Of a DNA stretch of 64,000 nucleotides, positions 25,855-51,472 are shown piece by piece. The stretch is taken from positions 352,001 through 416,000 of the forward strand of contig JAXDQS010000003.1 of the NCBI GenBank assembly GCA_034667725.1, given 5' to 3'. The translations under genes were made by a program, and so were the position numbers. This stretch comes from Thermoplasmata archaeon. GTDB taxonomy: Archaea; Thermoplasmatota; E2; JACPAO01; JAHFTW01. Numbering within the stretch: position 1 is the first letter of the stretch; each line of letters begins with the position of its first letter. The notes below the pieces were generated by a model. That model searched no databases. It was not told where the DNA came from and saw nothing but the letters and a program-made list of their open reading frames with translations.

Positions 25855-26072
25855 GGTCTCGGTGGATTCCTGAGAACTCTGTGGAATCTGTGTCCAGCCG
25901 GCGGCCGACGGGCACCGATTTCCCCAGATTCGGAAGATTCCCACAGAGGTCTGTGGAGTCTGTGTCCAGCCGGCGGCCCGCGACGAGCACTGATTTTCCC
26001 AGATTCGGAAGATTCCCGCAGAGGTCTGTGGAATCTGTGTCCAGGGGGCCGCTCTGTGGAGTCTGTGTCCAG
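25855..26072. repeat. Mosaic palindromic repeat cluster A (~75-bp units)
   Basis: CGACGRGCACYGATTT-CCCAGATTCGGAAGATTCCCRCAGAGGTCTGTGGARTCTGTGTCCAG tandem units. Confidence 0.92.
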
Positions 26073-26085
26073 TTGGGGCAGACCC

Positions 26086-26238
26086 CTAGTTCGGTGGGCT
26101 CGGACCCAGGCCGCCGTTGCCAAGGTTCGCCCGCAGCCCCGCAAGCGCCAGCTCCTTCAGGCTCCGCCCCGCGTTCTCCGGCCGCAGCGGGCACAGCACG
26201 CATTCCGGCTCGCTCCGGCAGCACGCCAGTTCCCGCAT
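26086..26238 (-). CDS. Small Cys-rich protein (50 aa)
   Basis: MRELACCRSEPECVLCPLRPEN...; stop lies just before repeat cluster A. Confidence 0.5.
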   Translation of the reverse strand: MRELACCRSEPECVLCPLRPENAGRSLKELALAGLRANLGNGGLGPSPPN

Positions 26239-26372
26239 CCGCAGCGTCTCCAACGAATTGCGGCAGAAGTGCTGCGCACAAGAGGATGGCGCCTGAAATT
26301 CTCCACCGGAAACCGCAGCCGCGGAATGCCAAACCCCCAAATACTGCCCAAGTTTGTGCATCGGCGGTCGGT

Positions 26373-26780
26373 ATGGACGAAGTCGACAAGAAGATCGTTT
26401 TGATCCTGCGCCAGAACGCCCGCGAGTCGTTCACGCAGATCGCGGAGCAGGTCGGGACGTCGGAGGGCACGGTGCGGGCCCGCGTGAAGAAGCTCACGGA
26501 GGACGGCACCATCCGCCAGTTCACCATCCGCACGGCGGGCAGCCACGTCAAGGCCTTGGTCGAGGTCAACGTGACCGCCAACGTGCACACCTCGGACGTG
26601 GCCAAGACCATCCGGCAATGGGCCGGCGTGGACGCGGTCTGGGAGGTCACCGGGGACAACGACATCATGGTGGTGGCGGACTGCCCGACGACCGAGGAGC
26701 TCAACGGCATCATCGACAAGATTCGCGACGTGCCGGGGACCCAGGCGACGCGGTCGCGGCTCATCCTGAAGGAGCACTAG
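26373..26780 (+). CDS. Lrp/AsnC family transcriptional regulator
   Basis: MDEVDKKIVLILRQNARESFTQIAEQVGTSEGTVRARVKKL HTH; VTGDND. Confidence 0.93.
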   Translation: MDEVDKKIVLILRQNARESFTQIAEQVGTSEGTVRARVKKLTEDGTIRQFTIRTAGSHVKALVEVNVTANVHTSDVAKTIRQWAGVDAVWEVTGDNDIMVVADCPTTEELNGIIDKIRDVPGTQATRSRLILKEH

Positions 26781-26803
26781 GCTGCGGCCCTCCCCACCCA
26801 CTA

Positions 26804-26838
26804 GACACAGATTCCGAAGATTCTGTGGAATCTGTGTC
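26804..26838. repeat. Minimal palindromic unit (cluster B) between convergent genes
   Basis: GACACAGATTCC ... GGAATCTGTGTC perfect 12-bp inverted repeat. Confidence 0.85.
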
Positions 26839-26862
26839 AGGTCCATCGGTCGGGTCAAGCGG

Positions 26863-27510
26863 TCAAGCGCGCGCCGCCAGCCACCCGTCGATGCCATCGA
26901 GGACGTACTGCACGGCGAACGCCACGGTCAGCAGGCCCATGATGCGGGTGATGACGCGGCGGCCGTTGTCGCCGATGATGTGGCTGGCGCGGGCGGTGGC
27001 CAGCAGGATCGCGAGCGCGCCCACCATGGCCAGCAGGATGGCGACGCTGATGGTGGCCAGGTCATGGCGGGTGCCTTGCACGATGACCAGGCTGATGGCG
27101 CCCGGGCCGGCGAGCATGGGAAGCCCGAGAGGCACCAGGCTCGGGTCGTGGGCAACAGGGCCGCCGCGGTGGGTGCCGCCGGTCGTGACCTCCAGCTCCC
27201 CTTCCGCGATCTCGCGCAGGGGGACCTCCTCGCCTTCGCGCAGCATGTTGAGGCCAATCAGCACCAGCAGGATGCCGCCGGCGACGCGAAGGCTGTAGAG
27301 CTCGATGCCGAGGTGGCGCAGCAGGGCTTGGCCGGCGACCGCGAACAGCAGCAGCACCGCTGCGGCGAACATGCAGGCCTTGAGGGCGATGCGGTCGCGG
27401 GCAGGCCGGTCGGCGCGCGCCGTGAGGCCGAGATAGAGGCCGATGGAGGCCAGCGGGTCCACCACCACGAAGAGCGGGACGAGGGCGAGCACCAGCTCCT
27501 GCGGGTCCAT
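26863..27510 (-). CDS. MarC family membrane protein
   Basis: LFVVVDPL, VAGGILL, PLGLPMLAGPGAI, ITRIMGLL. Confidence 0.93.
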   Translation of the reverse strand: MDPQELVLALVPLFVVVDPLASIGLYLGLTARADRPARDRIALKACMFAAAVLLLFAVAGQALLRHLGIELYSLRVAGGILLVLIGLNMLREGEEVPLREIAEGELEVTTGGTHRGGPVAHDPSLVPLGLPMLAGPGAISLVIVQGTRHDLATISVAILLAMVGALAILLATARASHIIGDNGRRVITRIMGLLTVAFAVQYVLDGIDGWLAARA

Positions 27511-27516
27511 GGGGCC

Positions 27517-28476
27517 TCAGTAGGCGACCGTCATGCGACGGCGCGGGTTGCGCGGGCGCTCCATCTCGTCCACGAAGGCCACGGCGTAGTCCTCCATGCT
27601 GATGCGGCTCTCGCCCTTGGCGTCGGCCAGGAGCTGGTCGGTGCCGGCGCGGTACTTGCCGGTGCGCTTGCCGGGCTCGACCATGGCGGGCGGGCTGATG
27701 CAGGTCCACTGCAGGTCGCCGGCGCGCTCGGCCAGCACCTGCATGGCGTCGCGGTGCGCGAGGGCCAGCGGGCGCCACTCGGCGGGGAAGCTGGGCGAGT
27801 CCAGCAGCTGCTTGCCGCCGGGGACCTGGAGGCTGCCGGCGCCGCCGACCCACAGCAGGCGCGGGACGTTGGCCTCGCGGGTGCCTTGCGTCAGCGCGAC
27901 CGCGGCGTCCGACAGCTCGTCGGGGCTCTCCAGCCGCGGCGCCACGGCGGCGGCCACCACGTCGTGGCCCTTGGCGACGGCGCGGACCATCAAGGGGTCG
28001 GAGGCGTCGGCGCGCACCGCCCGCAGGTTGGGGTGGCGCAGCTGGAGCTTCTCCGGGTGCCGCATGGCGGCCGTGACCTGGTGGCCGCGCGCGAGCGCCT
28101 CCTGCGCGATGCGCGAGCCGATGCGGCCCGACGCGCCAAAGAGCGCGACCCGCAGCGGCTTGACGACCTCGCGGAACTCGACCTCGGGCGCGGCGGGGGC
28201 CGGGCGCGCCGCGGCCGTGCGCACGGCGGGCTTCGCCTTCGCCGGCGCCGCGGCCTTCTTGGCCGGCGGCCGGGCCGCGGCCTTGCGGACGGCCGGCTTG
28301 GACGCGCGCTTGGGCACCTTCTTGGCCGCCGGGCGCGCCGCCTTGCGGACGGCCTTCTTCGGGGCCTTGCGGGCGACGGCCTTCTTGGGGGCACGCGCCG
28401 GGCGCTTGGCGGGGCGGGGGGAACGCGCGGAGCGGGCGGGGCGGGCGGCCTTCTTCGGGGCCTTGCGGGCGGCCAT
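27517..28476 (-). CDS. NAD(P)H-binding oxidoreductase (atypical SDR/flavin-reductase-like) with histone-H1-like basic N-terminal extension
   Basis: GASGRIG, VGGAGSL, ISMEDYAVA; first ~95 aa are K/R/A/P repeats. Confidence 0.88.
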   Translation of the reverse strand: MAARKAPKKAARPARSARSPRPAKRPARAPKKAVARKAPKKAVRKAARPAAKKVPKRASKPAVRKAAARPPAKKAAAPAKAKPAVRTAAARPAPAAPEVEFREVVKPLRVALFGASGRIGSRIAQEALARGHQVTAAMRHPEKLQLRHPNLRAVRADASDPLMVRAVAKGHDVVAAAVAPRLESPDELSDAAVALTQGTREANVPRLLWVGGAGSLQVPGGKQLLDSPSFPAEWRPLALAHRDAMQVLAERAGDLQWTCISPPAMVEPGKRTGKYRAGTDQLLADAKGESRISMEDYAVAFVDEMERPRNPRRRMTVAY

Positions 28477-28556
28477 GGCCGTGCCAAGGGCCTCGCGGCC
28501 ATAAGCGATGCCCCTGCGGAAAGCGGTATCAAGGACCACGACCACACTAGAGGCTA

Positions 28557-28660
28557 GCCACGCCGCAGTGACGCAAGCCTTCGAGGGCTCGCCCTCCACC
28601 GGCCTGGACCCGCTTCGCGGCAGTCCCAGGCCAAATCTGTGCCGTGATCCTCGGCGTGGC
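28557..28660 (-). ncRNA. Candidate structured ncRNA (three-way junction)
   Basis: Terminal stem GCCACGCCG/CGGCGTGGC plus two internal hairpins; G-U pairs favour the minus strand. Confidence 0.4.
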
Positions 28661-28707
28661 GTTCTTCTCCTCCCGTTTTTATCCCCCCGCCCGGTGGCCG
28701 CGCGTCC

Positions 28708-30162
28708 ATGCCCGCCACCGCCGTTGCCAAGTCCAAGGACTTCATGGAGTGGTACAACGAGATTGTCGAGGTCGCGGAGCTGACGGACAAGCGCTACCCG
28801 ATCAAGGGCATGAACATCTGGCGCCCGTACGGCCAGCGCATCATGTCGGCGATCGACGGCTTCACCCGCGCCGAGATGGCCCGCACCCACCACGACGAGG
28901 TGTCGTTCCCGCTCTTGATCCCGGAGAAGCTGTTCATGAAGGAGGCCGACCAGATCAAGGGCTTCGGCTCCGAGGTGTTCTGGGTGACGCACGCCGGCGA
29001 CAACAAGCTGCCCGACGGCGAGCGCTGGATCGTGCGCCCCACGTCAGAGTGCGCGATGTACGAGATCTTCCCGCTCTGGATCCGCAGCCACTCGGACCTG
29101 CCGCTCACCACCTACCAGATCTGCAACGTGTTCCGGTACGAGACCAAGCAGACACGGGCCTTCATGCGGGTGCGCGAAATCCACTTTTTCGAGGACCACT
29201 CCGTCTTCGCCGACGAGAAGTCCGCCCGCGAGCACGTCGAGCTGGACCTGCAGATCGTCCGCAACGTGTACCAGAAGCTCGCCCTGCCCGCGCTCTACTC
29301 GAAGCGCCCCGACTGGGACAAGTTCCCGGGGGCCGTGGACTCCACCGGCGCCGACGTCGTCATGCCGTCGGGCCGCACCCTGCAATGCGCCACGGTCCAC
29401 TACTACGGCGAGAACTTCGCGCGCGCCTACGACATGAAGTATGAGGCCGAGTCCGGCGGGCACAAGCACTGCCACCAGACCACCTACGGCATGAGCGAGC
29501 GCCTGGTCGGCGCCATCGTGGGCTGCCACGGCGACGACAACGGCCTGATTCTCCCGCCGGACATCGCGCCCCTCCAGGTCGTCGTCGTGCCCGTGCTGTT
29601 CAAGGGGGACGCCGAGCCCGTGCTGAAGGCGTGCCGCGAGGTGGCGGCCCGGCTGCGCGCCGCCGGCTTCCGCGTCGAATTGGACGAGCGCAACAAGTCG
29701 AGCGGCGAGAAGTACTACCACTGGGAACTGCGTGGCGTCCCGCTCCGGCTCGAGGTCGGCCCCAAGGACGTCGAGAAGCAGTCGGTGTTCGCCGCCCGCC
29801 GCGACATGGGCAAGGAGGGCAAGAAAGCCATCCCGATGGCGGAGCTGGAGACCGGCGTGCGCGCCATCCTGGACTCGGTCCAGAAGGCCTTGTTCGAGAA
29901 GCAGGCCGCGTTCGTCGCCACCCGGGTCCAGCACCCGAGGACGCTGGAGGAGGCAAAGACGCTCGACGCCGACGGGCAGGCCTCCGGCACCGGCTACATC
30001 CTCGCCATGGCGATCTGCGGCAACGCGTGCGCCGCCCAGGTCGAGAAGGGCCTCGACATCAAGACCCTCGGCGTGCCCGTGGACAAGGAGTATGCGCCGG
30101 CGCCATGCGCGGTGTGCGGCACGCAGGCCAAGGACACGCTCAGGTTCGCGCGGACGTACTGA
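28708..30162 (+). CDS. proS: Proline--tRNA ligase, archaeal/eukaryote-like type
   Basis: VRPTSE, FRYETKQTRAFMRVREI, QTTYGMSER, HGDDNGLILPP, C-terminal ARTY. Confidence 0.96.
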   Translation: MPATAVAKSKDFMEWYNEIVEVAELTDKRYPIKGMNIWRPYGQRIMSAIDGFTRAEMARTHHDEVSFPLLIPEKLFMKEADQIKGFGSEVFWVTHAGDNKLPDGERWIVRPTSECAMYEIFPLWIRSHSDLPLTTYQICNVFRYETKQTRAFMRVREIHFFEDHSVFADEKSAREHVELDLQIVRNVYQKLALPALYSKRPDWDKFPGAVDSTGADVVMPSGRTLQCATVHYYGENFARAYDMKYEAESGGHKHCHQTTYGMSERLVGAIVGCHGDDNGLILPPDIAPLQVVVVPVLFKGDAEPVLKACREVAARLRAAGFRVELDERNKSSGEKYYHWELRGVPLRLEVGPKDVEKQSVFAARRDMGKEGKKAIPMAELETGVRAILDSVQKALFEKQAAFVATRVQHPRTLEEAKTLDADGQASGTGYILAMAICGNACAAQVEKGLDIKTLGVPVDKEYAPAPCAVCGTQAKDTLRFARTY

Positions 30163-30191
30163 GCCTCCTTCGTTTGTCTCGGTGCGGCGCG

Positions 30192-30497
30192 GCGGGCACT
30201 GATTTACCCAGATTCGGAAGATTCTCGCAGAACTCTGTGGAATCTGTGTCTAGTTGCGGCGACGGGCACCGATTCGCACAGATTCGGAAGATTCCCACAG
30301 AGGTCTGTGGAATTTTTTGGCTAGGCCCCGCCAGAACCAAAGTCAGGGTCTGTGGAATCTGCGTCCAGTCGGCGGCCCCGCGACGAGCACTGATTTCCTC
30401 AGATTCAGAAGATTCCCACAGAAATCTGTGGAATCTGTGTCCAGTCGGCGGTGAGGCGTCGCCCACCCATCCCCCAAACCCACCGGGGACCCCGAGC
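30192..30497. repeat. Mosaic palindromic repeat cluster C
   Basis: Core units plus TTTTTGGCTAGGCCCCGCCAGAACCAAAGTCAGGG module and CCAGTCGGCGGTGAGGCGTCGCCC end. Confidence 0.92.
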
Positions 30498-32005
30498 TAG
30501 GCCTTCGGCCCGTTCGGGTACACCGTCGGCCCCAAGTCCAGCCCGCCGTCGGTCGCGATGAACCGGTTCGTCAGTCCCGCCGCGTCGCGCTTGGCGTACA
30601 CGCCCATGAGGCGGCCGTCGGGGGCGATGTCGGATTGCAGGAAGTCGCCGAGGTTGCGGCCGATGGGTCCGCGCAGGAGGTTGGGGTCCGCGACGCCGGA
30701 CTGGAAGCTGGGGGTCTCCTGGTCGGCGTCGATGCTGGCGGCGGCCATGAGGCTCCAGGTCCGTTGGGCGGGCTCGACGTCGGCGTCGGCGTGGTACCAG
30801 AGGATGCCGACATGGCCGGCGCGGCCGGCGGCGGGCCAGGGGAGGGTGTTGTCGCCCGGGGCGCCGAGGGCCACGGTGGGAAGCCAGGACCCGTCGGGGC
30901 GCTGGCGGGCCAGGAACAGGTCGGTGGTCTTCGGGTCGAGGCTGTGCACGAAGGCCACGTAGAGGTTGCCGGCCTCGTCCACGACGGGGGGAATCTGGAT
31001 GTCCCAGCCGCCGGGGCGTTCGGTGTCGGGGAGGGGCAGGGGCTCGTCGTCGCTCCAGGTCGTGCCGCCGTCGAGGCTGCGCCACAGGCGAATGGTGTCG
31101 CCGCAGCTTGCGACCACGGCGAGGTCGTCGCGCTGGGGGCCTTGGCCGAGGTTGCCGAGGCCGCAGGGGAACGAGCCGCGGGCGGTGGCGTCCCAGGTCT
31201 CGCCGCCGTCGGTGGAGCCGTAGACGCGGGTGGCGCTGCCCGTGTTGTAGGCGATCCACACTTGGCCGGGGGCGCCGGCGCGGACCCAGGGGCGGTCCAC
31301 GATGGGCTCGACGGGCCAGGCGCCTTGGAACTCCAGCTCGCCGGTGGCGGAGTAGCGGGAGAACCAAGTGCTGCCGACGGCGATGTCGAAGAAGTAGACG
31401 TCGCCGGCGTCGTCGATGGCGAAGTCGCCCTCGATGCCGAAGGCGTCGCGCGCGATGCCTTGCGAGGTGCCGGCCTCAAGGGTCTGGAAGGTCTTGCCGC
31501 CGTCGCGGGAGGTCCAGATGGGCGGGGACTGGCCGATGCAGCACACGGCGCTGGCCCAGACGGTGCCGTCGCCGGCGACCTCCAGCTGGGGCTCGCCGAA
31601 GTCGCCGCAGCCGCGGGCCTGGAACGGCGTCGGCTGGCACACCAGGTCGACGGGGGCCAGGAAGCCGAGCGTGCCCGGGAGGGCGGCCTCGGTCGCGGGC
31701 TGGAGCTCCAGGCGGTCGCCGAGCGTGTCCGCGGCGGCGAGGGCGGCAAGGCCGCCGAAGCGCACGGCGACGGTGGCGCCTGGGGGCACGGCCGCGCGGG
31801 GGAAGCGGCCGTCGGCGCCGGTCTCGAAGGCGGCCAGGGTGGCGTTGCCGGCGGAGACGCCGACGAAGGCGCCGCGGACGGGGGCGCCCGCCTCGTCGAC
31901 GACCAGGATGGTGCTGGACGGGGGCGGCGCGACCGGGGCGGGGGTCGTGCAGCCGGCCAGGAGGGCGCCCAGCAGGAAGGCGGCAAGGAGGACGGGTGTG
32001 CGCAT
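30497..32005 (-). CDS. BNR/Asp-box (sialidase-like fold) lipoprotein
   Basis: LLAGC lipobox; SRDGGKTF, STDGGETW, SLDGGTTW. Confidence 0.85.
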   Translation of the reverse strand: MRTPVLLAAFLLGALLAGCTTPAPVAPPPSSTILVVDEAGAPVRGAFVGVSAGNATLAAFETGADGRFPRAAVPPGATVAVRFGGLAALAAADTLGDRLELQPATEAALPGTLGFLAPVDLVCQPTPFQARGCGDFGEPQLEVAGDGTVWASAVCCIGQSPPIWTSRDGGKTFQTLEAGTSQGIARDAFGIEGDFAIDDAGDVYFFDIAVGSTWFSRYSATGELEFQGAWPVEPIVDRPWVRAGAPGQVWIAYNTGSATRVYGSTDGGETWDATARGSFPCGLGNLGQGPQRDDLAVVASCGDTIRLWRSLDGGTTWSDDEPLPLPDTERPGGWDIQIPPVVDEAGNLYVAFVHSLDPKTTDLFLARQRPDGSWLPTVALGAPGDNTLPWPAAGRAGHVGILWYHADADVEPAQRTWSLMAAASIDADQETPSFQSGVADPNLLRGPIGRNLGDFLQSDIAPDGRLMGVYAKRDAAGLTNRFIATDGGLDLGPTVYPNGPKA

Positions 32006-32089
32006 GGCTGTCGAGAGGCCGCCCGCCATTTGATGGTTTCACCCGCCCCCCGAAACGGCTGGAATACCCCCGGCGGCTTTCTGTCCCTC

Positions 32090-34456: not shown

Positions 34457-35659
34457 ATGGCCCATCCCCTGGGCGGACCGGACCTCGTCGACTCGCCGAC
34501 GGCGGAGCGGTACGCAGGGTCGCGCCACCTCGGCGTCCTCCCCCTCGGCTGCATCCAGTGCCGCGAGGGCGCCAAGCTGGTGCTGTTCGTGACGGGCCTG
34601 TGCGACAAGGAGTGCTTCTACTGCCCCGTGTCGCGCAACAAGATGTACCGCGACGTCATGTTCGCCAACGAGCGGCCCATCCACCCCGGCAAGTGGGACG
34701 ACTTGATCGACGAGTGCCAGCTGATCGGCGCCAAGGGTGCCGGCATCACCGGCGGCGACCCCATGATGGTCCCCGAGCGCGTCTGCGAGGCCATCTGTGT
34801 CCTGAAGGAGCGCTTCGGCGCCGACTTCCACACCCACCTCTACACCTCGTGCAGCTTCGACCTCGCCTGGATCGCCAAGCTCAAGGAGGCCGGCCTGGAC
34901 GAGATTCGCTTCCACCCGGAAGTTTCCGACTACGCCCGCCTGGAGGAGTCGTGGCACGGCCCCGCCGTCAAGGAGGCCCGCCGCGTCGGCCTCACCACCA
35001 CCATCGAGATCCCCTGCATCCCCGGCAAGGCCGCCGACATCCTCCAATTGGCCCGCGACGCCGAGCGGCTGGGCTGCAACGGCCTCAACATGAACGAGCT
35101 GGAGTTCAGCGACCCCAACATCGCCAACCTCAAGGCGCGCGGCTTCACAGTGGCGGACGACGAGTCCCAGCGCGTGGCCGGCAGCCGCGACACGGGCATG
35201 GAAGTCCTCGACGCATGGCAGACGGAGGCCCGCGGCAAGGGCACCATGGGCGGCAGCCGCGGCACCAGCCAGTTCGCCGTCCACTTCTGCAGCAGCCCCT
35301 ACAAGGACGCCATCCAGCTCATGCAGCGCTTCCGCCGCCGCGCCAGCAACACCGCCCGCCCCTTCGAGGAGGTCACGGACGAAGGCACCATCGTCTACGG
35401 CGTGCTGCGGCCCCACGACCCCGCGACCCTGGGCGAGGCGGCCGAGCGGCTCCGCACCGAGTACGAGGTCCCCATGGAGTGGGTCGCCGTCGTGGGCGAC
35501 CGCATCGAGACCGCGCCGGCCGTGGCCGAGGAGCTGGCCGAGTCGGGCGAGCTTGAAGGGCTAGGCTGCAAGGCGTGGTTGAGCGAAGTCCACCCGACGG
35601 CGGACCGGCTCGAGGTGGAGCGGGTGCCGCTGCCCATCGTGGATGCTCCTGAGGAATGA
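34457..35659 (+). CDS. Archaeal radical SAM protein (COG2108-like)
   Basis: GCIQC..GAKLVLFVTGLCDKECFYCP, ANERP, ITGGDP, GLDEIRFHP. Confidence 0.9.
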   Translation: MAHPLGGPDLVDSPTAERYAGSRHLGVLPLGCIQCREGAKLVLFVTGLCDKECFYCPVSRNKMYRDVMFANERPIHPGKWDDLIDECQLIGAKGAGITGGDPMMVPERVCEAICVLKERFGADFHTHLYTSCSFDLAWIAKLKEAGLDEIRFHPEVSDYARLEESWHGPAVKEARRVGLTTTIEIPCIPGKAADILQLARDAERLGCNGLNMNELEFSDPNIANLKARGFTVADDESQRVAGSRDTGMEVLDAWQTEARGKGTMGGSRGTSQFAVHFCSSPYKDAIQLMQRFRRRASNTARPFEEVTDEGTIVYGVLRPHDPATLGEAAERLRTEYEVPMEWVAVVGDRIETAPAVAEELAESGELEGLGCKAWLSEVHPTADRLEVERVPLPIVDAPEE

Positions 35660-35661
35660 GC

Positions 35662-36022
35662 GGTCGGTGTCCTCGGTGGCGACGCCTCACCGCCGACTGG
35701 ACGCAGATTCGGCAGAGTTCTGTGAGAATCTTCTGAATCTGAGGAAATCAGTGCTCGTCGCGGGCCACCGACTGGACACAGATTCCACAAATCTTCTGTG
35801 GGAATCTTCTGAATCTGAGCGAATCGGTGCCCGTCGGGTGACCGACGCACACAGATTCCACAGACCCTGACTTTGGTTCTGGCGGGGCCTAGCCAAAAAC
35901 TCCACAGGGTTCTGTGGGAATCTTCCGAATCTGGGGAAATCAGTGCCCGTCGCGCGCCGCCGACCGGACACAGATTCCACACAAAGTTCCGAGGGAATCC
36001 ACCGAGGGCACCGCGACCGACC
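35662..36022. repeat. Mosaic palindromic repeat cluster D (reverse orientation) with inverted ends
   Basis: Core units plus invariant module; CGGTGTCCTCGGTGG (35665) and CCACCGAGGGCACCG (35999) are a 14/15 inverted match. Confidence 0.92.
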
Positions 36023-36023
36023 G

Positions 36024-36422
36024 TCAGCCGACGTGCACCACGCCGCGCATGTCCGACTCGTGGTGGCGGTGGCACCAGATGGTCCAGGCCCCGTCCTCAT
36101 TGAGGGTCGCGTTGTACGACATCCCGGCGTCCACCGAGTATTGCGGCTCGTGCAGCTTGGGCGAGAAGAACCGCGGGTAGTCCTCGCTCGGCGGGTCGCC
36201 CACGTAGGCGGCCACGTCATGCGCCTCCTGCCCCGCGTTGACCCACACCACGGTGGCGCCGGAGGGGACGCGCGCCTCCGCCGGCTCGAACCGCAGCGCG
36301 TCGGTCATCCGGATGACGTAGCGGCCTTGGTCGTCCATGGGCGGCACCGTGCCCTTCGCAGAGCAGCCCGCGGCCATCACGGCGACCAAGACCAAGGCGA
36401 GCCAAGGACCATAGGTGGGCAC
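36024..36422 (-). CDS. Type-1 copper (plastocyanin/halocyanin-like) lipoprotein
   Basis: AAGC lipobox; FEP...V.W.N...HDV and WCHRHHESDM ligand pattern. Confidence 0.87.
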   Translation of the reverse strand: MPTYGPWLALVLVAVMAAGCSAKGTVPPMDDQGRYVIRMTDALRFEPAEARVPSGATVVWVNAGQEAHDVAAYVGDPPSEDYPRFFSPKLHEPQYSVDAGMSYNATLNEDGAWTIWCHRHHESDMRGVVHVG

Positions 36423-37907: not shown

Positions 37908-38595
37908 CGGCGGGCCGGCTCATCGGCGGCGGCACGCTCGCCTGCATCGCCTGGACCTGCGCGTCGGTGTAGTTGCCGAACGCGAACAGCACCGCCTCGC
38001 CGTCCTTGACCTGATAGTCGAGGTAGTCGCCCATCGGGTGCTCGGCCCACTCGCCGTCGACGTCCTGGAGCCAGAACCGCAGCGTCTGGTTGCCGTTGTT
38101 CTCCCACTCGCCGGCGAACCCGGTGGTGGCGTGCTGGCCTGCGATGACCAGGCCGTCGGCGCTGAGGCCCACGTCGGCGATGTCGAGCGCGGTGCGCAAT
38201 CCGACGCAAGTGCCCCCTTCGTAGTGCAACTGGGCAGGACCCAACGCCTCGGAGCCTTGCTCAGGGCCCGACTGGTGCATGTGGATGGCGAGGCGCATCT
38301 TGCCGGTGCCCAGGTCGTAGTAGGGCCGGCCGCCGGCGTCCTTGGGGAGGTTCATGTCCAGCATCCGGGGCGACCCGTCCTCGTTCGGCGTGTAGACGCG
38401 GAACGTCCCATGCCAGTGGTCCGGGCACTCCGGCCGCAGGTTCTTGAGGGCGACGATCGCCAAGGCGCCCAAGCCGATCACCAGGAAGATGACCAGGGGA
38501 ACCTTCCAGGCGCCGGCCTTCGACGGGCCCTTGTGCTTGGTGCCGGCTTCCTTGGCGCGCTGGGCACGGCGTTCACGAGGCGAAAGGTCGTCCAT
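37897..38595 (-). CDS. Membrane-anchored His-motif protein, paralog 1
   Basis: Basic N-terminus plus TM; HWH, HMH and LHYE motifs; paralog at 39938. Confidence 0.8.
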   Translation of the reverse strand: MDDLSPRERRAQRAKEAGTKHKGPSKAGAWKVPLVIFLVIGLGALAIVALKNLRPECPDHWHGTFRVYTPNEDGSPRMLDMNLPKDAGGRPYYDLGTGKMRLAIHMHQSGPEQGSEALGPAQLHYEGGTCVGLRTALDIADVGLSADGLVIAGQHATTGFAGEWENNGNQTLRFWLQDVDGEWAEHPMGDYLDYQVKDGEAVLFAFGNYTDAQVQAMQASVPPPMSRPAVTA

Positions 38596-39937: not shown

Positions 39938-40615
39938 TTAGACCTGCGCGGGGCGGCCGATGGGCGCCGGCACGAGGTCCTGCATCTCGGCCACTTGGGC
40001 GTCGGTGTAGTCGCCGAAGGCCACCAGGATGGATTCGCCGTCGCGCAGCTGGGTCTCCAGCACGTCCGCGGGGGCGTGCTCGGCCCAGGCCCAGTCGATG
40101 CCTTGGATCCACGTCCGCAGCACGCCGCCCTGGCCGTCGGTCCAGTTGCCCGTCGAGCCGGTCTGGCTGTGCTGGCCGTACACGCGCAGCGAGGCGGCCT
40201 GGAGGTCCACGTCGGCCACCATGAGGGAGTTGTGGACGTCGACGCAGACGCCGCCCTCGTAATGGAGCTGCGCGGGCCCGAGGGCCGCCGACCCTTGCTC
40301 GGGGCCCGACTGGTGCATGTGGATGGCGAGGCGCATCTTGCCGGTGCCCAGGTCGTAGTAGGGCCGGCCGTGGGCGTCCTTGGGCGCGTTCAGGTCGAGC
40401 ATCCGGGGCGCGCCGTCGTCGCCGGGGAGGAAGACGCGGAAGGTGGCGTGCCCGTGCGCCGGGCAGGCGTCAGGCTCGGCGGGCGCGGCGCGCGTCGCCA
40501 GCGTGGCCTTGGTCGCGGCCGTCGTCGTCCCCGTCGAGGTGGTCTTGGCGCCGGGGGCGGCGCAGCCGGCCAGCACGATGAGGGCAGCCAGGGACAAGGC
40601 GAGGAGGACACGCAT
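39938..40615 (-). CDS. His-motif lipoprotein, paralog 2
   Basis: MRVLLALSLAALIVLAGC; shares PYYDLGTGKMRLAIHMHQSGPEQGS with the 37897 gene. Confidence 0.8.
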   Translation of the reverse strand: MRVLLALSLAALIVLAGCAAPGAKTTSTGTTTAATKATLATRAAPAEPDACPAHGHATFRVFLPGDDGAPRMLDLNAPKDAHGRPYYDLGTGKMRLAIHMHQSGPEQGSAALGPAQLHYEGGVCVDVHNSLMVADVDLQAASLRVYGQHSQTGSTGNWTDGQGGVLRTWIQGIDWAWAEHAPADVLETQLRDGESILVAFGDYTDAQVAEMQDLVPAPIGRPAQV

Positions 40616-43141: not shown

Positions 43142-44032
43142 ATGTCCGCAGCGCAAGCAGTCGATCCGTTCCCGTACGGCCGCGATCCCTGGTGGGGCAA
43201 GGCGCTCATCCTCACCATCGTCATCCTGCCGCTGTTCGCCCTCGCCTACGCGGCGTGGCGCTGGTGGGGCCACGGCGTCACCGGCCTCGAGGTCGGCCTC
43301 CTGCTCGGCCTGTGGGCCTTCACGGGGCTCGGCATCTCGGTCGGCTTCCACCGCATGGTGACCCACCGCGCCTTCGTCGCCAAGCCCGCCGCGCGCGCCG
43401 TCCTGCTCTTGGCCGGCACCATGGCGGTCGAGGGCCCGCCCTCCGGCTGGGCGGCGACCCACCTGCGCCACCACGCCATGGCCGACCGCGACGGCGACCC
43501 GCACAGTCCGCTCGAAGGGTTCTGGCACGCGCACTTCGCCTGGATGCTGCGCGACCGCATGGTGCACGGCGGCCTGGCGCACGACAAGCTGATGCGCGAC
43601 CCCGTGGTGGCGTTCTTCTCGCGCACCTGGATCTTCTGGACCTTCCTCTCGTTCCTGCTGCCCGCCCTCGTCGGGCTCGCCGTCCACGGGACCTTCTGGG
43701 GCATGGTGGACGCCTTCGTCTGGGGCGGCCTGCTGCGGATTTTCCTGCTGCACCACACCACCTGGGCCGTCAACTCCATCGGCCACATGTTCGGCACCCG
43801 CCCCTACCGAAGCCCCGACCGGGGGGCCAACAACGCCATCGTCGCCGTGCTGGGCTGGGGCGAAGGCTGGCACAACAACCACCACGCCTTCCCGCGCGCC
43901 GCCTACATCGGGATGCGCTGGTACGAGTTCGACCCCGGCCGCTGGGTCATCCAGCTCCTCAAGGCCTTGGGCCAAGTCGAGCATGTTTGGAACCCGACGC
44001 CGGAGGAGCGGGCGCAAAGGCTGCGGGCGTGA
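43142..44032 (+). CDS. Delta-9-type membrane fatty-acid desaturase
   Basis: His boxes HRMVTH, HLRHH, HNNHH; DPHSP; GEGWHNNHH. Confidence 0.93.
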   Translation: MSAAQAVDPFPYGRDPWWGKALILTIVILPLFALAYAAWRWWGHGVTGLEVGLLLGLWAFTGLGISVGFHRMVTHRAFVAKPAARAVLLLAGTMAVEGPPSGWAATHLRHHAMADRDGDPHSPLEGFWHAHFAWMLRDRMVHGGLAHDKLMRDPVVAFFSRTWIFWTFLSFLLPALVGLAVHGTFWGMVDAFVWGGLLRIFLLHHTTWAVNSIGHMFGTRPYRSPDRGANNAIVAVLGWGEGWHNNHHAFPRAAYIGMRWYEFDPGRWVIQLLKALGQVEHVWNPTPEERAQRLRA

Positions 44033-44033
44033 G

Positions 44034-44440
44034 CCGCCGACTGGACCCGGATTCCACAGAGTTCTGTGGGAATCTTCCGAATCTGAGGGAATCAGTGCCC
44101 GTCGCGGGGTCGCCGACCGAACAAAGATTCCGCAGAGGTCTGCGGGAATCTTCCGACTCTGAGCGAATCGGTGCCCGTCGGGTGGCCGACGCACACAGAT
44201 TCCACAGACCCTGACTTTGGTTCTGGCGGGGCCTAGCCAAAAAATTCCACAGATCTCTGTGGGAATCTTCCGAATCTGGGAAAATCAGTGCCCGTCGCGG
44301 GCCACCGACTGGACACAGGTTCCGCAGAGTTCTGTGGGAATCTTCTCAATCTGTGCGAATCAGTGCTCGTGGCGGGGCCGCCGGCTGGACGCAGATTCCA
44401 CAGAGTTCTAGAGGAGTCCGCCGAGGGAACCGAGACGAGC
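44034..44440. repeat. Mosaic palindromic repeat cluster E (largest)
   Basis: Four to five core units plus invariant module at 44197-44243. Confidence 0.92.
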
Positions 44441-44447
44441 GTGGACC

Positions 44448-44786
44448 CTAACGCCAGGTCGAGTAGCGGTCCATGATGCCCAGGATCCGCTGCTGCGTGG
44501 CGGGGTCGACCGCCTTCTCCTTGACCTTCTCCATGAGCCAGACCTTCGCCTCGGTGACGGCGTCGCGCGAGCCCTTGGCCCACAGCGTCTGGATGAGCGA
44601 GTTGTGCAGCTCCACGGCCACGGGGGAGGCCTTCAGGATGTCCTGCAGGTCGTACTTGAAGTAGTTCGCCTTCGACTGGTCCAAGAGCTTCTCCCGCTGG
44701 CGCGACTCGCGGGTGTTCTTGTTCGTCTGGTTGTGCTTGGGCGCCCGCGGCGTGCCCGGCACTTGCGGGACCCGCGGCGCGCGCAT
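44448..44786 (-). CDS. Hypothetical protein (112 aa)
   Basis: MRAPRVPQ...AKGSRDAVTEAK...DRYSTWR; host-like codon bias. Confidence 0.8.
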   Translation of the reverse strand: MRAPRVPQVPGTPRAPKHNQTNKNTRESRQREKLLDQSKANYFKYDLQDILKASPVAVELHNSLIQTLWAKGSRDAVTEAKVWLMEKVKEKAVDPATQQRILGIMDRYSTWR

Positions 44787-44891
44787 CCGGCGTGCCACGC
44801 CTTCCCCTGAACGGCGCAAGCATATCGCCGTGCCGGTGAGGCCATCGTCTGCTGCCTTGGCGCGACAATGCTGCTTATCTGGAGCGCTCCC

Positions 44892-46157: not shown

Positions 46158-47095
46158 CCACGGTCGCCCCCGCCGCCTTCCTCGCCGTCTGCGGCCACAC
46201 CAACCTCGACGTCCACCTCCAGGTGCAGGACCTGCCGCGGCCCGGCCAGTCCGTCCCCGTGCTGGAGCGCCGCACCCTGTGGGGCGGCACCGCGGCCAAC
46301 ATCGCCCGCCAAGCCGCCGGCCTCGGCGTGCCGACCCGGATGTGGAGCCGCGTCGGCGACGACTTCCCCGCCGCCTGGCGCCAAGCCTTGGCGGACGAGG
46401 GCGTAGACCTCGCGTTCCTGGAGACGGTGCGCGGCGGCCGCACCCCGACCTGCTTCATCCTCACCGACCTGCTGGACCGGCAATGCTACGCCATCGACCA
46501 GGGCCCCATGGCGCGCATGGAGGAGGCCCCCATCGGCAAGGAGTTCCTCAACGGCCTCCCCGACGGCGCGTGGCTGCACGTCAGCACCGGCAACCCCATC
46601 GCCTACGCCCAGGTGGCGCACGCCGCCCGCGACTCCGGCCTGCACGTCGGCTTCGACCCCGGCCAGGAGATGCGCTTCCAGTACGACACCCGCAGCTTCG
46701 AAGGCCTCCTCGACACCGCCGAGGTGTTCTTCTGCAACGAGGAGGAGCTCCGCGTCGCCTGCGACTTCCTGAGCTACGGCGACCCCGTCCAGTTCCTCGA
46801 CCACGTCGACGCCGTCGTCGTCACCCGCGCCGCCAAGGGCGCCAGCCTGTACCGGTCGGGCAAGAAGGCCGTGACCGTCCCCGCGTTCCCCACCCGCGTC
46901 GTCGACCCCACCGGCGCCGGTGACGCCTTGCGGGCCGGCTGGTACGCCGCGTTGCGCGCCGGCAAGGGCATGGAGGAGGCGCTGCGCTGGGGCAACGCCG
47001 CCGCCGCGCTCAAGCTGCCGCACATGGGCGGGCAGGAGCACGTCCTCCGGATGCCCGAGATGGCGCGGCTGCTGGAGAAGGAGACGCTGGCGTAG
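46154..47095 (+). CDS. PfkB family nucleoside/carbohydrate kinase
   Basis: GGTAANIA, FDPGQ, VDPTGAGDA; GTG start overlaps the ahcY stop. Confidence 0.92.
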   Translation: MTTVAPAAFLAVCGHTNLDVHLQVQDLPRPGQSVPVLERRTLWGGTAANIARQAAGLGVPTRMWSRVGDDFPAAWRQALADEGVDLAFLETVRGGRTPTCFILTDLLDRQCYAIDQGPMARMEEAPIGKEFLNGLPDGAWLHVSTGNPIAYAQVAHAARDSGLHVGFDPGQEMRFQYDTRSFEGLLDTAEVFFCNEEELRVACDFLSYGDPVQFLDHVDAVVVTRAAKGASLYRSGKKAVTVPAFPTRVVDPTGAGDALRAGWYAALRAGKGMEEALRWGNAAAALKLPHMGGQEHVLRMPEMARLLEKETLA

Positions 47096-47155
47096 CCGCC
47101 CCATTCGATTCCGATCAGCCAATGCCGTTAAGCCGCCCCCGGCCGGCTCCCCCGC

Positions 47156-48697
47156 ATGGCAAGCCTGGGCGCGTTCGGCCAGTTCCTTCTCGACGGCGAG
47201 GCCCGGCTGCAGGAGTCCGCCCGCAAGGCGGCGCCCGCCATCGGCCCCATCCTGCGCAACGGCAGCGGCAACGACCTGCGAGACTGGATGCGCAAGGTCT
47301 ACGCTGATGCCTATGGCTCCGGCCATGCCTTCGTCCAAGCGCTCGCGCAGCCGGGCGTGAACTACTACCGCATCGACTCCGCCAAGGCCATCCAGTATCC
47401 CTTCGCCCCCGCCGCCCGGCCGCTCATCCTGTTCCTCGCCAACCAGGCCGACTGTCCACCAACCCGATTCGCATGGGAGGCCACGGCCGAGGAGCGGTTC
47501 CGCGAATACATGGGATGCGGCCCAGGCCCGTTCGCGGCCGCCGTGGCCCAAGGCCTTTTGCTCCCCACCGTCGGCCCGATGCGTCCCGACGGCAAGCCCG
47601 GCTACACGGGACCGTTCATGCGAGGCCTGTTCCAGCGCCTGGCCGCCTTGGACGACCGGACTTGGCCCGTCTCCGCGAACGTGCTGGACATGCTGGGCCT
47701 GCGGCCGGGCCGCCACGCTCGCCGCTGGGCCGGCGCCCTCGACGCCATCGGCAAGCGGCACCCCCGTCTCCTGGAGGACCGCTACACCCACCGAATCCTT
47801 GGCGAGGACAGCACGCTGGCGCCCGTGGTCCCCCGTGCCTACCTGAAGGAGCGGGCGCCGTGGTTCGACCTCGCCATGCCCGACACGCCGCGCGCCGTTT
47901 TTGACGTCCAGCTCCGGCAGCTGCGGCGCGAGCCGGGCCCCAAGCGGTTGGCGCGACTGATGGATTCCGCCTTCGTGCTGCACCATCTCTACGCTGCTCC
48001 CGCCTACTACTCGAAGGGCCCCTCCATCCGGGTCAGTGGCCGCGACCTGGGCCACTGGGTCTCGGTCCTGCAGCAGGCAGGCCAGGCCTTGGACGAGGAG
48101 GCCCGCCGCCACCGGGATGCCAAAGAGCGGCTGGAGCATGCCCGGAACGCCCTCGACACCGTGGCGCAGCATCTGCCTGCGGTCGTCGTGGGAGGCATCG
48201 AGGGCGTCGGCCGCCGAGCCGGCCGGCGGTTCGAGCGCCACATTCCCCAGTGCCTCTCCGACGACCGGATGGAGGCCATCCTCGACGCCCTGGACCGGAT
48301 CGGCGGGCCGCCTGACCCGGAGGCGGCCGCCGCGCACCAGGACGCCCAGAAGGTCTTCATCGAGCGGCCTCCCGGCAAGGAGCCGGACATGGCGCGGCTC
48401 CAGCGCTCCGTCGAGGCGCTCAACGACACCATTGGCGGCCTGGACGCCTGGAAGAGCCGCTTCGACTTCGCGCGGCGGGAACGGGTCCGGGCCACGGTCC
48501 AGGTCGGCGGCACCGTGCCCGCCCTTGCGATGCCCGCCCTCAAGCCCGCCCTTCGCATCCTGGACTCGGCCTGGTTGGCAGCCAACAAGCTCCGCCACGC
48601 CCAGGCGCCCAAGGACGGCGCAGGCAGCAATCCGAACCTGCAGCTCGGCCTTGACTACCTCCAGACGCCGCCAGGCGACCCGTTCGTGCGGGCCTAG
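47156..48697 (+). CDS. Hypothetical protein (513 aa), no recognised motifs
   Basis: Long ORF filling the gap; TTAAG box about 28 nt upstream. Confidence 0.7.
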   Translation: MASLGAFGQFLLDGEARLQESARKAAPAIGPILRNGSGNDLRDWMRKVYADAYGSGHAFVQALAQPGVNYYRIDSAKAIQYPFAPAARPLILFLANQADCPPTRFAWEATAEERFREYMGCGPGPFAAAVAQGLLLPTVGPMRPDGKPGYTGPFMRGLFQRLAALDDRTWPVSANVLDMLGLRPGRHARRWAGALDAIGKRHPRLLEDRYTHRILGEDSTLAPVVPRAYLKERAPWFDLAMPDTPRAVFDVQLRQLRREPGPKRLARLMDSAFVLHHLYAAPAYYSKGPSIRVSGRDLGHWVSVLQQAGQALDEEARRHRDAKERLEHARNALDTVAQHLPAVVVGGIEGVGRRAGRRFERHIPQCLSDDRMEAILDALDRIGGPPDPEAAAAHQDAQKVFIERPPGKEPDMARLQRSVEALNDTIGGLDAWKSRFDFARRERVRATVQVGGTVPALAMPALKPALRILDSAWLAANKLRHAQAPKDGAGSNPNLQLGLDYLQTPPGDPFVRA

Positions 48698-48747
48698 CCG
48701 CCGCCACCCCCACAACCTTCATCCCACCCTCCCAAGTCGCGCCCTCC

Positions 48748-49212
48748 ATGGCACTCCAGACCGGCCAGAAGCTCCAGGACTTCACCCTCAAGTTGGCGAC
48801 CAAGGACGGGGCGCAGGAGTTCACCCTGAGCCAGCACCTTTGGCAGGGCCCGCTGGTGATCGGGTTCTTCCCGCTCGCCTTCAGCGGCACCTGCACGAAG
48901 GAGATGTGCGAGTTCCGCGACACGCTCGACAAGTTCGGCGGCCTCGGCGCCAAGGTGGTCGGCTTCAGCACCGACTCCCACTTCACCAACATCCACTTCG
49001 CCAAGGAGCACGGGCTGCCGCTGGGCATCCTGTCCGACCCGAACCGCGAGGTCGTGGGCAAGATTTGGCAGACGATGGAGGTCGCGGGCGTCAAGAACGT
49101 GGCCAAGCGCGGCGTGATGGTGCTGGACGCCGACGGGACCGTGAAGTGGACCAGCGTGTCCGACGACCCGAAGGTCTGGATCGGCACCGACGAAGTGCGC
49201 AAGCACCTCTAG
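48748..49212 (+). CDS. Peroxiredoxin, BCP/PrxQ-AhpE-like
   Basis: FFPLAFSGTCTKEMC. Confidence 0.9.
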   Translation: MALQTGQKLQDFTLKLATKDGAQEFTLSQHLWQGPLVIGFFPLAFSGTCTKEMCEFRDTLDKFGGLGAKVVGFSTDSHFTNIHFAKEHGLPLGILSDPNREVVGKIWQTMEVAGVKNVAKRGVMVLDADGTVKWTSVSDDPKVWIGTDEVRKHL

Positions 49213-50186
49213 ACGACGACGAGCACGGCGGCGGCGTTGTTGGCGTAGTCCGACTCGACGTAGAGCCGCTCGGGGTTGACCTCGGCCTCCAGGACGTACG
49301 GCCCCGGCGCCAGCCCGGTCACGTCGACCCATTGGCCGTCGAGGAACAGGGAGTACTTGTCGGCCCAGAACGAGGTGATGCCCTGGCCCTCGGAGCAGTA
49401 GCGGAACTGGCGCGGGTTCACGGTGCCGGCGACGGGGCTGCCCCAGGGCAGGAAGTCGATGATGCAGAAGCCCTGCTTGTGTCCGGCCACCATGTGCTCC
49501 AGCAGCTCGGGGTAGGCGGCCAGCACGGCGGCGGGCGGCATCCCCGGGTGGGCGGCGCGCACGGCCTGCCACGCGGCGTAGCCGGCGGGGTCCCACAGGC
49601 GGTAGTCGGCGTACTCGCTGAAGTGCCAGTGGCCGTGGCAGGTCCCCCACTCGAACCATTCGGGGTGGTCGGCGGGCCGTCCGACCTCGAGGTCGCCGAG
49701 GCCGATGTTGGGGCTCACGAAGTCGAACCGCAGCAGCGTCCGGGTGCCGGCGGCCGTGCTGTTCTCCGCGACCGCGCAGTGGTCGGCGGCGAACGCGCGC
49801 GTGTCGAGCCGCACGGTCGAGGCCAGCGAGACGGGATCCACGATGAGGTCCGGGCAGTGCGGCGCGTCCGCGCACGGCACCTGGCCGGAGGCGCCGTCGC
49901 CCTCGCCGTCGGTCCAGCCGGCGTCCGCGCCGACGGCAAGGAAGCCGCCGAGGACGGCCGAGGCGTGGGCGTCCACCGACGGCAGGCCGACGGGCACCGC
50001 CGTCATGCCGAAGTCGGCCGGGTCCAGGTCGCCGCAGGCGCGCAGCAGCGCCTCGCACAGGCCGTGCAAGTCGGCCTCCACGGCGACGGGGCCATGGACG
50101 CCGACGGTCGCGGCGGGCCCGCCTTGGGCGGCGGCGCCGAGGGCAAGGACGAAGGCAAGGAGGGCGGCCGTCGGGAGGCGGGCCAT
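49209..50186 (-). CDS. Secreted lysyl oxidase-like protein
   Basis: Signal peptide; LLRF, EWGTCHGHWHF, GHKQGFC, WADKY, QWVDVT, ESDYANN. Confidence 0.88.
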   Translation of the reverse strand: MARLPTAALLAFVLALGAAAQGGPAATVGVHGPVAVEADLHGLCEALLRACGDLDPADFGMTAVPVGLPSVDAHASAVLGGFLAVGADAGWTDGEGDGASGQVPCADAPHCPDLIVDPVSLASTVRLDTRAFAADHCAVAENSTAAGTRTLLRFDFVSPNIGLGDLEVGRPADHPEWFEWGTCHGHWHFSEYADYRLWDPAGYAAWQAVRAAHPGMPPAAVLAAYPELLEHMVAGHKQGFCIIDFLPWGSPVAGTVNPRQFRYCSEGQGITSFWADKYSLFLDGQWVDVTGLAPGPYVLEAEVNPERLYVESDYANNAAAVLVVV

Positions 50187-50279
50187 GCGGCTCGATGCGG
50201 GCCGCGGTATTTCATGCGCGTTGCCGCTTCCTGACCCACCCCCCGGCGACTTTAAGCGGCGAGGGCCTCGCGCGGTCGA

Positions 50280-50942
50280 ATGACCTGGCTGTGGACGGTG
50301 ATGCGGCCGCTGGCGGTGCCGGTCGTCCGCCTCGGCTTGCGGGTCAAGGTGAAGGGGCGCCGCCACATCCCGAGGAAGGGGGCCGCCATCCTCGCCTCCA
50401 ACCACTTGTCCGCGCTCGACCACGTCGTGCTACCGATGGCGACCCGGCGCACCATCGTCAACATCAGCAAGGCCGAGCACTTCGCCAAGCCCGTCAAGGC
50501 CTGGTTCTTCCGGCAATGGGGCGTCATCCGGCTGCAGCGTGGCGCCGGCGACAAGGGCGCCTTCGAGGCCGCCAAGAACGCCCTGCTGGAGGGCCACCTG
50601 TTCTGCATCTACCCGGAAGGGACCCGCAGCCTCGACGGCAAGCTGCACAAGGGCCACACCGGCGTCGCCCGCCTCGCGCTGGCGACCAAGTCCCCTGTCG
50701 TCCCGGTCGCCATGGTCGGCACCTTCGAGTCCTGGCCCAAGGGCGGCAAGCTCCGGCTGTTCAAGCCGACCGGCGCCCTCGTCGGCCCGCCCCTCGACTT
50801 CAGCCGCCACTGGGGCAAGCAGGACGACAAGGCCGTCTGCCGCGAGGTCACGGACGAGGTCATGCGCGCCATCCAGAAGCTCTCGGGCCAAGAGTACGTC
50901 CACGAGTACCAGCGCAACCCCGAGGTCCCCACCCACCGGTGA
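50280..50942 (+). CDS. plsC: 1-acyl-sn-glycerol-3-phosphate acyltransferase (PlsC family)
   Basis: SNHLSALD (HxxxxD) and YPEGTRS motifs. Confidence 0.9.
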   Translation: MTWLWTVMRPLAVPVVRLGLRVKVKGRRHIPRKGAAILASNHLSALDHVVLPMATRRTIVNISKAEHFAKPVKAWFFRQWGVIRLQRGAGDKGAFEAAKNALLEGHLFCIYPEGTRSLDGKLHKGHTGVARLALATKSPVVPVAMVGTFESWPKGGKLRLFKPTGALVGPPLDFSRHWGKQDDKAVCREVTDEVMRAIQKLSGQEYVHEYQRNPEVPTHR

Positions 50943-50945
50943 CCC

Positions 50946-51296
50946 ATGGCGTCCGGCATCACGCTGTGGGGACGCGCCGGCGAGCCGGACACCGCCGACG
51001 CGTTGCAGTTCCTCAAGCGCCACGGCTACGCCGCCGACGCCGTGCGCGACCTTGCCAAGTCGCCGCCCAGCCCCACGGAGCTGGCGGCCTTGGGCAAGGG
51101 CTTCGGCGGCTCGCTGCTGCCGCTTGTGGCCCCCGGCGCCGCCCCGCCCGCCGGCGACGACGTCGCGGCGTGGCTTGCGGCCGACTGGAGCCGGGCCCGG
51201 AGCCCGGTGCTCTTGACGCCAAAGGGCGCGGTGGCGGGGTTCCGGGAACGGCGGTGGAGCGAGTTCCTGGGGATCACGGGCCGGCAGCGGGGCTGA
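50946..51296 (+). CDS. ArsC/Spx-like thioredoxin-fold protein lacking Cys
   Basis: ITLW...DTADALQFL...DLAKSPPS.TEL...SPVL...GF..RW pattern. Confidence 0.6.
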   Translation: MASGITLWGRAGEPDTADALQFLKRHGYAADAVRDLAKSPPSPTELAALGKGFGGSLLPLVAPGAAPPAGDDVAAWLAADWSRARSPVLLTPKGAVAGFRERRWSEFLGITGRQRG

Positions 51297-51302
51297 GGAA
51301 GG

Positions 51303-51472
51303 TTCGGTGGTCTCGGTGCCCTCGGTGGATTCCCTCTGTGTCTAGTTGCGGTCCGCGACGAGCACTGATTCGCACAGATTCAGAAGATTCCCACAGAACT
51401 CTGCGGAATCCGTGTCCAGTCGGCGGTGAGGCGTCGCCCCACCAATCCACCGAAACCACCAAGGACACCGAA
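51303..51472. repeat. Mosaic palindromic repeat cluster F with 29-bp inverted ends
   Basis: 51303-51331 and 51444-51472 are a 23/29 inverted match flanking one core unit. Confidence 0.9.

Follow-up and report, generated by a model that had tools for sequence, protein, structure and literature searches.

Word-armed hairpin arrays at gene 3' ends in a soil archaeon and their possible relation to GxxExxY nuclease genes

The window, a stretch of 64,000 nucleotides (nt) from the metagenome bin of an uncultured soil archaeon of the Thermoplasmatota (G000:C3:352001-416000), contains six intergenic clusters of a single hairpin repeat family, which is the subject of this analysis; the clusters and their neighbouring genes are listed in Table 1. 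The bin (designated G000) comprises 2.32 Mb on 26 contigs, with 71% G+C and 90% completeness, and genes were called with our own simple codon-usage caller (2116 genes, covering 91% of the DNA). An initial annotation of the window had described the six clusters, and all were found to be present: the 13-nt core motif, searched for with up to 2 mismatches, occurred 18 times, compared to 0.46 expected from shuffled sequence. The codon-usage gene calls agreed with the annotation that five of the six lie between convergent genes. Its further statement, that every cluster follows closely on a stop codon, held for five, but not for that at 25855-26070, which is between two gene starts. No RAYT (transposase associated with repetitive extragenic palindromes, REPs), GxxExxY, four-helix-bundle or TnpB gene was found in the window, in line with the report that no mobiliser gene is located there.

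The unit proposed in the annotation was matched by the consensus of 94 full units aligned from the whole genome, including the GATT phasing of 10 and 9 nt and the stem of 12 bp. The short unit is approximately 75 nt in length, of which about 57 nt are conserved and made of 9-10-nt words. A GC-rich linker is followed by three GATT-containing words of the CAGATTC type (at 10- and 9-nt spacing), CACAGA, a variable loop of 2-4 nt and an inverted (right) arm terminating in GTCCAG; the 12-bp inner stem contains one additional bulged C. In a long unit of approximately 115 nt, two copies of a 10-nt right-arm word flank a 35-nt stem-loop segment. This segment is present in 28 copies, at a constant position within the unit and never alone, and behind a hairpin of the long unit stand 5-6 T in a row, a kind of run that is rare in 71% G+C DNA. 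The third form, the solo hairpin, has two words and a loop that varies, and its arms begin CTRGACACAG; window 26797-26843 is an example, predicted to fold strongly as single-stranded DNA (z = -5.0), the full unit folding only moderately (z = -2.5).

Translation of the repeat was considered, given that 75 nt equals 25 codons and that one frame is open through cluster 1; this was rejected, as the period ranges between 70 and 121 nt and no coding signal was seen in codon-position G+C. The open frame in question (24245-26776, minus strand) spans a lipoprotein gene, cluster 1 and the antisense of the Lrp gene. It is a spurious open reading frame of 839 amino acids in which the unit reads as a 25-residue repeat, and represents a trap for automatic annotation.

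An iterated nhmmer model was run over the whole G000 genome and gave 162 hits at 53 loci on 8 contigs, with approximately 94 full units; the family is therefore not confined to the window. In total it occupies 10.3 kb, equal to 0.44% of the genome, and no gene contains any of the 53 loci. Convergent spacers contain 31 loci, tandem spacers 16 and divergent spacers 6, compared to 341, 1407 and 342 such spacers genome-wide. The convergent excess over the 16% expected was statistically significant both by spacer count (binomial test, P = 4e-12) and by spacer length (P = 9e-10), and the strong bias towards gene 3' ends and convergent spacers supports the picture given in the initial annotation. In tandem spacers the arrays are located on the stop-codon side. 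The distance from an array edge to a stop codon is often about 10 nt or less, and a few repeats supply the stop codon themselves. Loci were mildly clustered (median nearest-neighbour distance of 8.2 kb, where random spacers gave 15.5 kb; P about 0.01), and six loci within 26 kb, as in the window, were obtained in 2 of 1000 randomisations. For work on G000 itself, the arrays inflate convergent spacers, can provide neighbouring genes with stop codons and are likely assembly break points.

Each array contains from 1 to 6 copies, which run head-to-tail in a single orientation, while the orientation of the array relative to the upstream gene is mixed. Location at gene 3' ends would be expected if the arrays served the host, as terminators or insulators between convergent genes or as phased sites for a chromatin or regulatory protein. 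The T run behind the long-unit hairpin is compatible with such a role, as is conservation of the words without compensatory change, which recognition by a protein would predict, and phasing of 10 nt would place the sites on one face of the helix. However, the mixed orientation, the range of copy number, the presence of one cluster in a divergent promoter spacer and the finding (below) that sister species have either nothing or unrelated words at the orthologous sites all speak against it, and a host-serving function is considered quite unlikely. The 3'-end RNA structure offered as an alternative in the annotation is also not favoured, given the mixed orientation to the upstream gene and the lack of compensatory changes in the stem.

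Comparison of units within and between arrays indicated how the arrays arose. Unit identity was 82.9% within one array and 82.5% between arrays, and only 3 of the 94 units had their closest relative in their own array. Whole arrays matched arrays elsewhere, with up to 91% identity over 265 nt, and five arrays have a common core (long unit, linker, short unit) but differ in the number of flanking units. Because units are no more alike within than between arrays, have their nearest relatives elsewhere, and occur in arrays that match other arrays, it is concluded that the arrays originated through dispersal rather than local slippage. Slippage, tandem duplication or an assembly artefact, without dispersal, would account for the tandem structure; such an origin is scarcely credible, as it is contradicted by the 53 loci on 8 contigs and by the observation that a neighbour is almost never a unit's nearest relative, and units that are approximately 83% alike can be resolved by short-read assembly. 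The arrays are mosaics, formed by dispersal of units and multi-unit blocks and by recombination between loci. Identity to the nearest copy had a median of 93%, with two identical pairs, from which it follows that some copying was fairly recent; with only 2 such pairs, the description of the family as actively spreading was not borne out. Two metagenome scans with exact unit patterns, aimed at strain-level polymorphism, returned no matches.

A second word family was observed around two of the clusters. At cluster 6, the TCGGTG words on the 5' side have their mirror image in CACCGA-type words at about 51436-51472, such that the arms enclose the unit, and cluster 4 is likewise enclosed by TCGGTG/CACCGA arms (35660-35690 and 35990-36024) with a 9-nt period. 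Elsewhere in G000 this family forms ordinary short hairpins and 'outward-facing' pairs. The enclosure of CAGATTC arrays by arms of the second family suggests that elements land in each other's centres. On another contig (G000:C12, L079:765-1840), a gene of 202 amino acids resembling winged-helix regulators has a CACCGAG-family hairpin upstream, and its lone downstream arm is an exact inverted copy of one upstream arm.

Table 1. Repeat clusters of the window and anchor genes used for orthologous-site comparison (window coordinates).
Feature	Position	Strand	Composition	Context
Cluster 1	25859..26072	+	Partial unit 25859-25900; full units 25903-25972 and 25975-26046; right-arm fragment to 26072	Divergent spacer, between gene starts of 24245-25756 (-) and 26373-26780 (+)
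Cluster 2	26797..26843	none	Solo short palindrome, two-word hairpin; model matches both strands	Between stop of Lrp/AsnC-like gene (26780, +) and stop of gene 26863-27510 (-)
Cluster 3	30187..30448	+	Unit 30187-30256; long unit 30259-30372 (35-nt internal stem-loop segment 30314-30348); unit 30376-30448	Occupies convergent spacer, proS (stop 30162) to gene 30497-32029 (-)
Cluster 4	35693..36005	-	Units 35693-35766 and 35768-35840; long unit to 35958 (internal segment 35865-35899); partial unit 35960-36005	Convergent spacer, radical-SAM-like gene (stop 35659) to gene 36024-36422 (-)
Cluster 5	44037..44424	-	Units 44037-44108 and 44113-44184; long unit to 44303 (internal segment 44209-44243); unit 44305-44376; partial unit 44381-44424	Convergent spacer, between genes 43142-44032 (+) and 44448-44798 (-)
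Cluster 6	51351..51423	+	Single full unit	Convergent spacer, between genes 50946-51296 (+) and 51477-51767 (-)
Second word family at cluster 6	51303..51334	none	Three TCGGTG words, 9-nt spacing	5' side of cluster 6
proS, archaeal-type prolyl-tRNA synthetase	28708..30162	+		Stop is the first orthologous-site anchor
Radical-SAM-like gene	34457..35659	+		Stop is the second orthologous-site anchor

The family was then compared with 12 other genomes of the genus (G001-G012) and with 25 genomes from the same order but other genera. The 74-nt unit was specific to G000, and congeners matched its right-arm module only. A 15-nt double word (up to 1 mismatch allowed) was found 130 times in G000, 167 times in G002 and 43 times in G001, with fewer matches in the other ten genomes and at most one match in any genome when the sequence was reversed as a control. 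The G002 copies are arranged as canonical hairpins, each arm consisting of three words with a 9-nt period.

Orthologous sites were anchored on the stop codons of proS and of the radical-SAM-like gene. Directly downstream of proS, G000 has a CAGATTC array, G012 a CACGAA hairpin, G007 a CACGGAA hairpin and G011 a hairpin of the word CGCGGATT, while in G009 a spacer of 3 nt separates the proS stop from the convergent stop. Downstream of the radical-SAM-like gene, where G000 again carries an array, there is a worn CACAGATTC hairpin in G001, CGCAGATT in G006, CACCGATT in G008, other words in G005 and G004, and nothing in G009, G003 or G007; in total, six species carry five word types at this site and three carry none. 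That orthologous gene ends bear hairpins of different words, or none, argues for repeated insertion and turnover, and this comparison is the best evidence for these in the analysis. It also fits the mobile, non-autonomous element suggested by the initial annotation. Gene 3' ends in the genus have been taken repeatedly by hairpins of one architecture but different words.

Larger elements were also observed in G002 (L064:100-470 and L065:80-520). These measure roughly 370-420 nt from arm to arm, have three-word CACAGATT arms and have a conserved non-coding interior in common, one of them containing a nested CACGGAG hairpin; no credible Rfam match was obtained for them.

Known mobilising enzymes and repeat classes were screened for. 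No match to the Y1/RAYT transposase family (PF01797) was found in the 90%-complete G000 assembly, while control genomes did match; the four-helix-bundle IVS protein (PF05635) was not found in G000, and TnpB (PF07282) gave no G000 match above the cut-off. G000 has no small GIY-YIG gene (PF01541), the only match being in a 945-amino-acid frame at C3:190555, away from the arrays. The genes between arrays in G000 are housekeeping genes only, and no transposase adjoins any array; inverted array pairs were ruled out as composite transposons on account of the housekeeping genes between them. Against Rfam, the window gave only three tRNAs at the gathering score and cluster 5 gave no match at E values up to 1, while BLAST searches with an array against plasmid and phage collections gave no match. 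A CRISPR identity was rejected, as there are no unique spacers and the 12-18-nt linkers between repeats are conserved between loci. The literature searched contained no description of these repeats in Thermoplasmatota, nor of such enzyme-paired repeats in archaea, and the annotation's statement that they are not described for this archaeal group is upheld to that extent.

These searches bear on a further explanation, namely that the repeats belong to a classical system of REPs or bacterial interspersed mosaic elements (BIMEs) with a RAYT, or derive from IS200/IS605 elements (PATE), with the transposase gene lying in the 10% of the genome that is not assembled. In distribution and in their hairpins the repeats resemble REPs, and head-to-tail stacking is typical of IS200/IS605 self-targeting. 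Neither a Y1 transposase nor TnpB was found in G000, however, the units lack a GTAG/CGTC head, and their construction from 9-nt words is unlike that of REPs, making this origin very improbable. The label REP/BIME-like given in the initial annotation is retained as an analogy, but the head-to-tail arrays, the 9-nt words and the lack of a RAYT set the family apart.

One candidate enzyme was identified. G000 contains a single GxxExxY gene (G000:C5:135449-135904, minus strand), located on a contig other than that of the window, which matches TIGR04256 (2.4e-37) and PF13366 (1.6e-34), the latter a family listed as being of unknown function (PMC3424549). The encoded protein retains G28, E31, Y34, D71, E81 and K83, which are near-invariant in 30 homologues of the genus; D71, E81 and K83 form a PD-(D/E)XK signature. 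Outside the window, then, a nuclease gene adjoins an array of the same word, as the annotation's proposed check for flanking nucleases had anticipated: four long-type units with the same arms begin inside the non-domain C-terminal tail of the gene, and a single worn word is found about 65 nt upstream of its start. Interpretation of this array as clean gene-deletion derivatives was downgraded, as the start of the first unit in the C-terminal tail amounts to adjacency, with no deletion junction. Homology of the 35-nt long-unit segment to the segment after the GxxExxY gene was likewise not adopted, being only marginal (P about 0.01-0.06).

PF13366 was detected in every one of the 12 congeneric genomes besides G000, at 1-8 copies per genome, and in none of the 25 from other genera. 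Of the 30 copies of the gene in the genus, 18 stand between clear inverted arms of two or three phased words, each copy having a word of its own. In G006 and G007 the arms around the gene are of the CACAGATT type, a word family that the G000 repeats have in common with these cassettes of related genomes. In G001, the only GxxExxY gene has CACGAATT arms and the genome contains 239 CACGAATT double words; in G010, a GxxExxY gene has CACGGAA arms and the genome contains 127 copies of that word; each count was the highest among the five genomes tested. Where the protein tree was resolved, GxxExxY proteins with the same word clustered together. The arrangement extends to three unrelated bacterial plasmids, where GxxExxY genes of Sphingomonas (between fabD and fabG) and Treponema are bracketed by word arms and that of a Gemmatirosa plasmid has a triple-word hairpin beside it. 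In the literature searched, GxxExxY proteins receive only passing mentions, and word-arm cassettes are without description there. In most cassettes of the genus (L010-L039) a conserved GGCCAAC-type motif was also noted 40-130 nt upstream of the GxxExxY start; lying between the left arm and the start codon, it may be a cassette promoter or processing signal.

Taken together, the clusters are best read as non-autonomous hairpin elements of a GxxExxY-associated 'word-arm' class, tolerated at gene 3' ends, a reading to which we assign a probability of approximately 0.55. In each unit, three direct words of 9-10 nt make up the left arm and the right arm is inverted, such that either strand could fold back, and the same architecture, with one word per lineage, forms the mirror-image arms around GxxExxY genes in the genus and in bacteria. 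The units would then be non-autonomous relatives of GxxExxY cassettes, copied to new places both singly and as multi-unit blocks, and surviving where insertion is harmless, that is, in the few bases that separate convergent stops and, in tandem spacers, on the side of the stop codon. The likeliest recogniser of the phased words would be the single GxxExxY nuclease of G000 or a lost paralogue, and copying may begin with a cut by the nuclease at or near the hairpin. That the GxxExxY nuclease moves or maintains the repeats is proposed only tentatively, from sequence comparison.

A number of observations weigh against this reading. In G000 one gene adjoins one array, which has roughly a 5% probability by chance alone, and the left arm is nearly gone. 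Whole cassettes inherited together from a common ancestor could account for the agreement between proteins and words. No CACAGATT-armed GxxExxY gene was found in the 90%-complete assembly of G002, despite its 167 CACAGATT words, and several other genomes have many hairpins but no cognate GxxExxY gene; the repeats can therefore persist in a genome without a resident cognate nuclease. Array edges showed no visible target-site duplication, and the one orthologous site that is empty belongs to a species approximately 15% diverged in the proS protein. Stem positions are nearly invariant, and a covariation check detected no compensatory changes within the family. The gene calls, moreover, are those of a simple caller of our own, applied to a metagenome bin that is 90% complete. 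Finally, homing of a nuclease gene into pre-existing hairpins fits the data equally well.

In that last case, the repeats would be an independent family with an unknown mover, and the GxxExxY gene a homing-type passenger targeting hairpin centres, with the arms as its target rather than its own ends. Hairpin centres do act as landing places, as seen from the CAGATTC units between arms of the second family and from the CACGGAG hairpin inside a G002 element, and hairpin-rich genomes that lack a cognate gene do exist. On the other hand, no other mobilising enzyme was found in G000, and genus-level co-occurrence of the gene family and the hairpins fits both readings. We regard the passenger explanation as somewhat unlikely, and retain the word-arm element reading.

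Dispersed hairpin repeats with a dedicated enzyme are well studied in only a few bacterial groups (REP/RAYT and, recently, NTS/Ssn), and GxxExxY proteins are common in prokaryotic genomes. A wider proposal, held with less than even confidence, is that bacteria and archaea have an undescribed system of which the arrays form the non-autonomous half, and in which a small PD-(D/E)XK GxxExxY nuclease would read three helically phased 9-nt words per arm and trigger copying of what lies between or beside the arms; each nuclease lineage would have its own word, and hairpin centres would serve as landing sites, giving rise to nesting and stacking. If word arms are GxxExxY substrates, a large orphan protein family would gain a testable function and become a source of programmable, word-specific nucleases, and many so far unexplained intergenic hairpins in metagenome-derived genomes would be accounted for.

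Two other repeated features were observed in the window. Three GC-rich folded units of approximately 108 nt (20758-21034) lie behind tRNA-Gly(TCC) (21065-21135, minus strand), each ending in a copy of the last bases of the tRNA (GCATCGA); this family is distinct from the CAGATTC repeats. Two 300-nt stretches (38104-38403 and 40142-40441; repeat family D4) are 75% identical and 2 kb apart, and are probably paralogous coding sequence.

The family lacks the defining features of REP/RAYT systems, miniature inverted-repeat transposable elements (MITEs), IS200/IS605 elements, Ssn/NTS and CRISPR. Eukaryotic foldback (FB) elements have long inverted arms of short tandem sub-repeats and are mostly gene-less, a few having a central gene; they are much larger and use different enzymes, and the likeness is structural only. 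MITEs are also gene-less and dispersed, with inverted arms and nested insertions, but G000 has no transposase-bearing parent, no target-site duplication was seen at its arrays, and the arms are word arrays rather than simple terminal repeats. REP/BIME-RAYT (REPIN) systems (PMC2817692, PMC3116915, PMC3733652) are similar in their high-copy extragenic hairpins, gene 3'-end bias and composite arrays, and in their apparently vertical persistence in one lineage with a single-copy partner gene. They differ in that the REP is a palindrome of 20-40 nt with a GTAG or CGTC head, while G000 units are of 75-118 nt and consist of sub-words with no such head; in that orientation alternates in their composite arrays, while G000 arrays are head-to-tail; and in that a cognate Y1/HUH gene is flanked by the repeat, while G000 has none and the host is an archaeon. 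The Ssn/NTS-SRM system (Chenal et al. 2025, PMC11893778) likewise combines a small nuclease gene with many dispersed structured repeats: Ssn is a site-specific GIY-YIG nuclease with hundreds of dispersed cognate short structured repeats, and its subfamilies have their own sequences (PMC11893778). The G000 candidate differs in being a putative PD-(D/E)XK nuclease (PF13366), and each arm of the G000 repeats comprises three phased 9-nt words, the repeats often being stacked in arrays.

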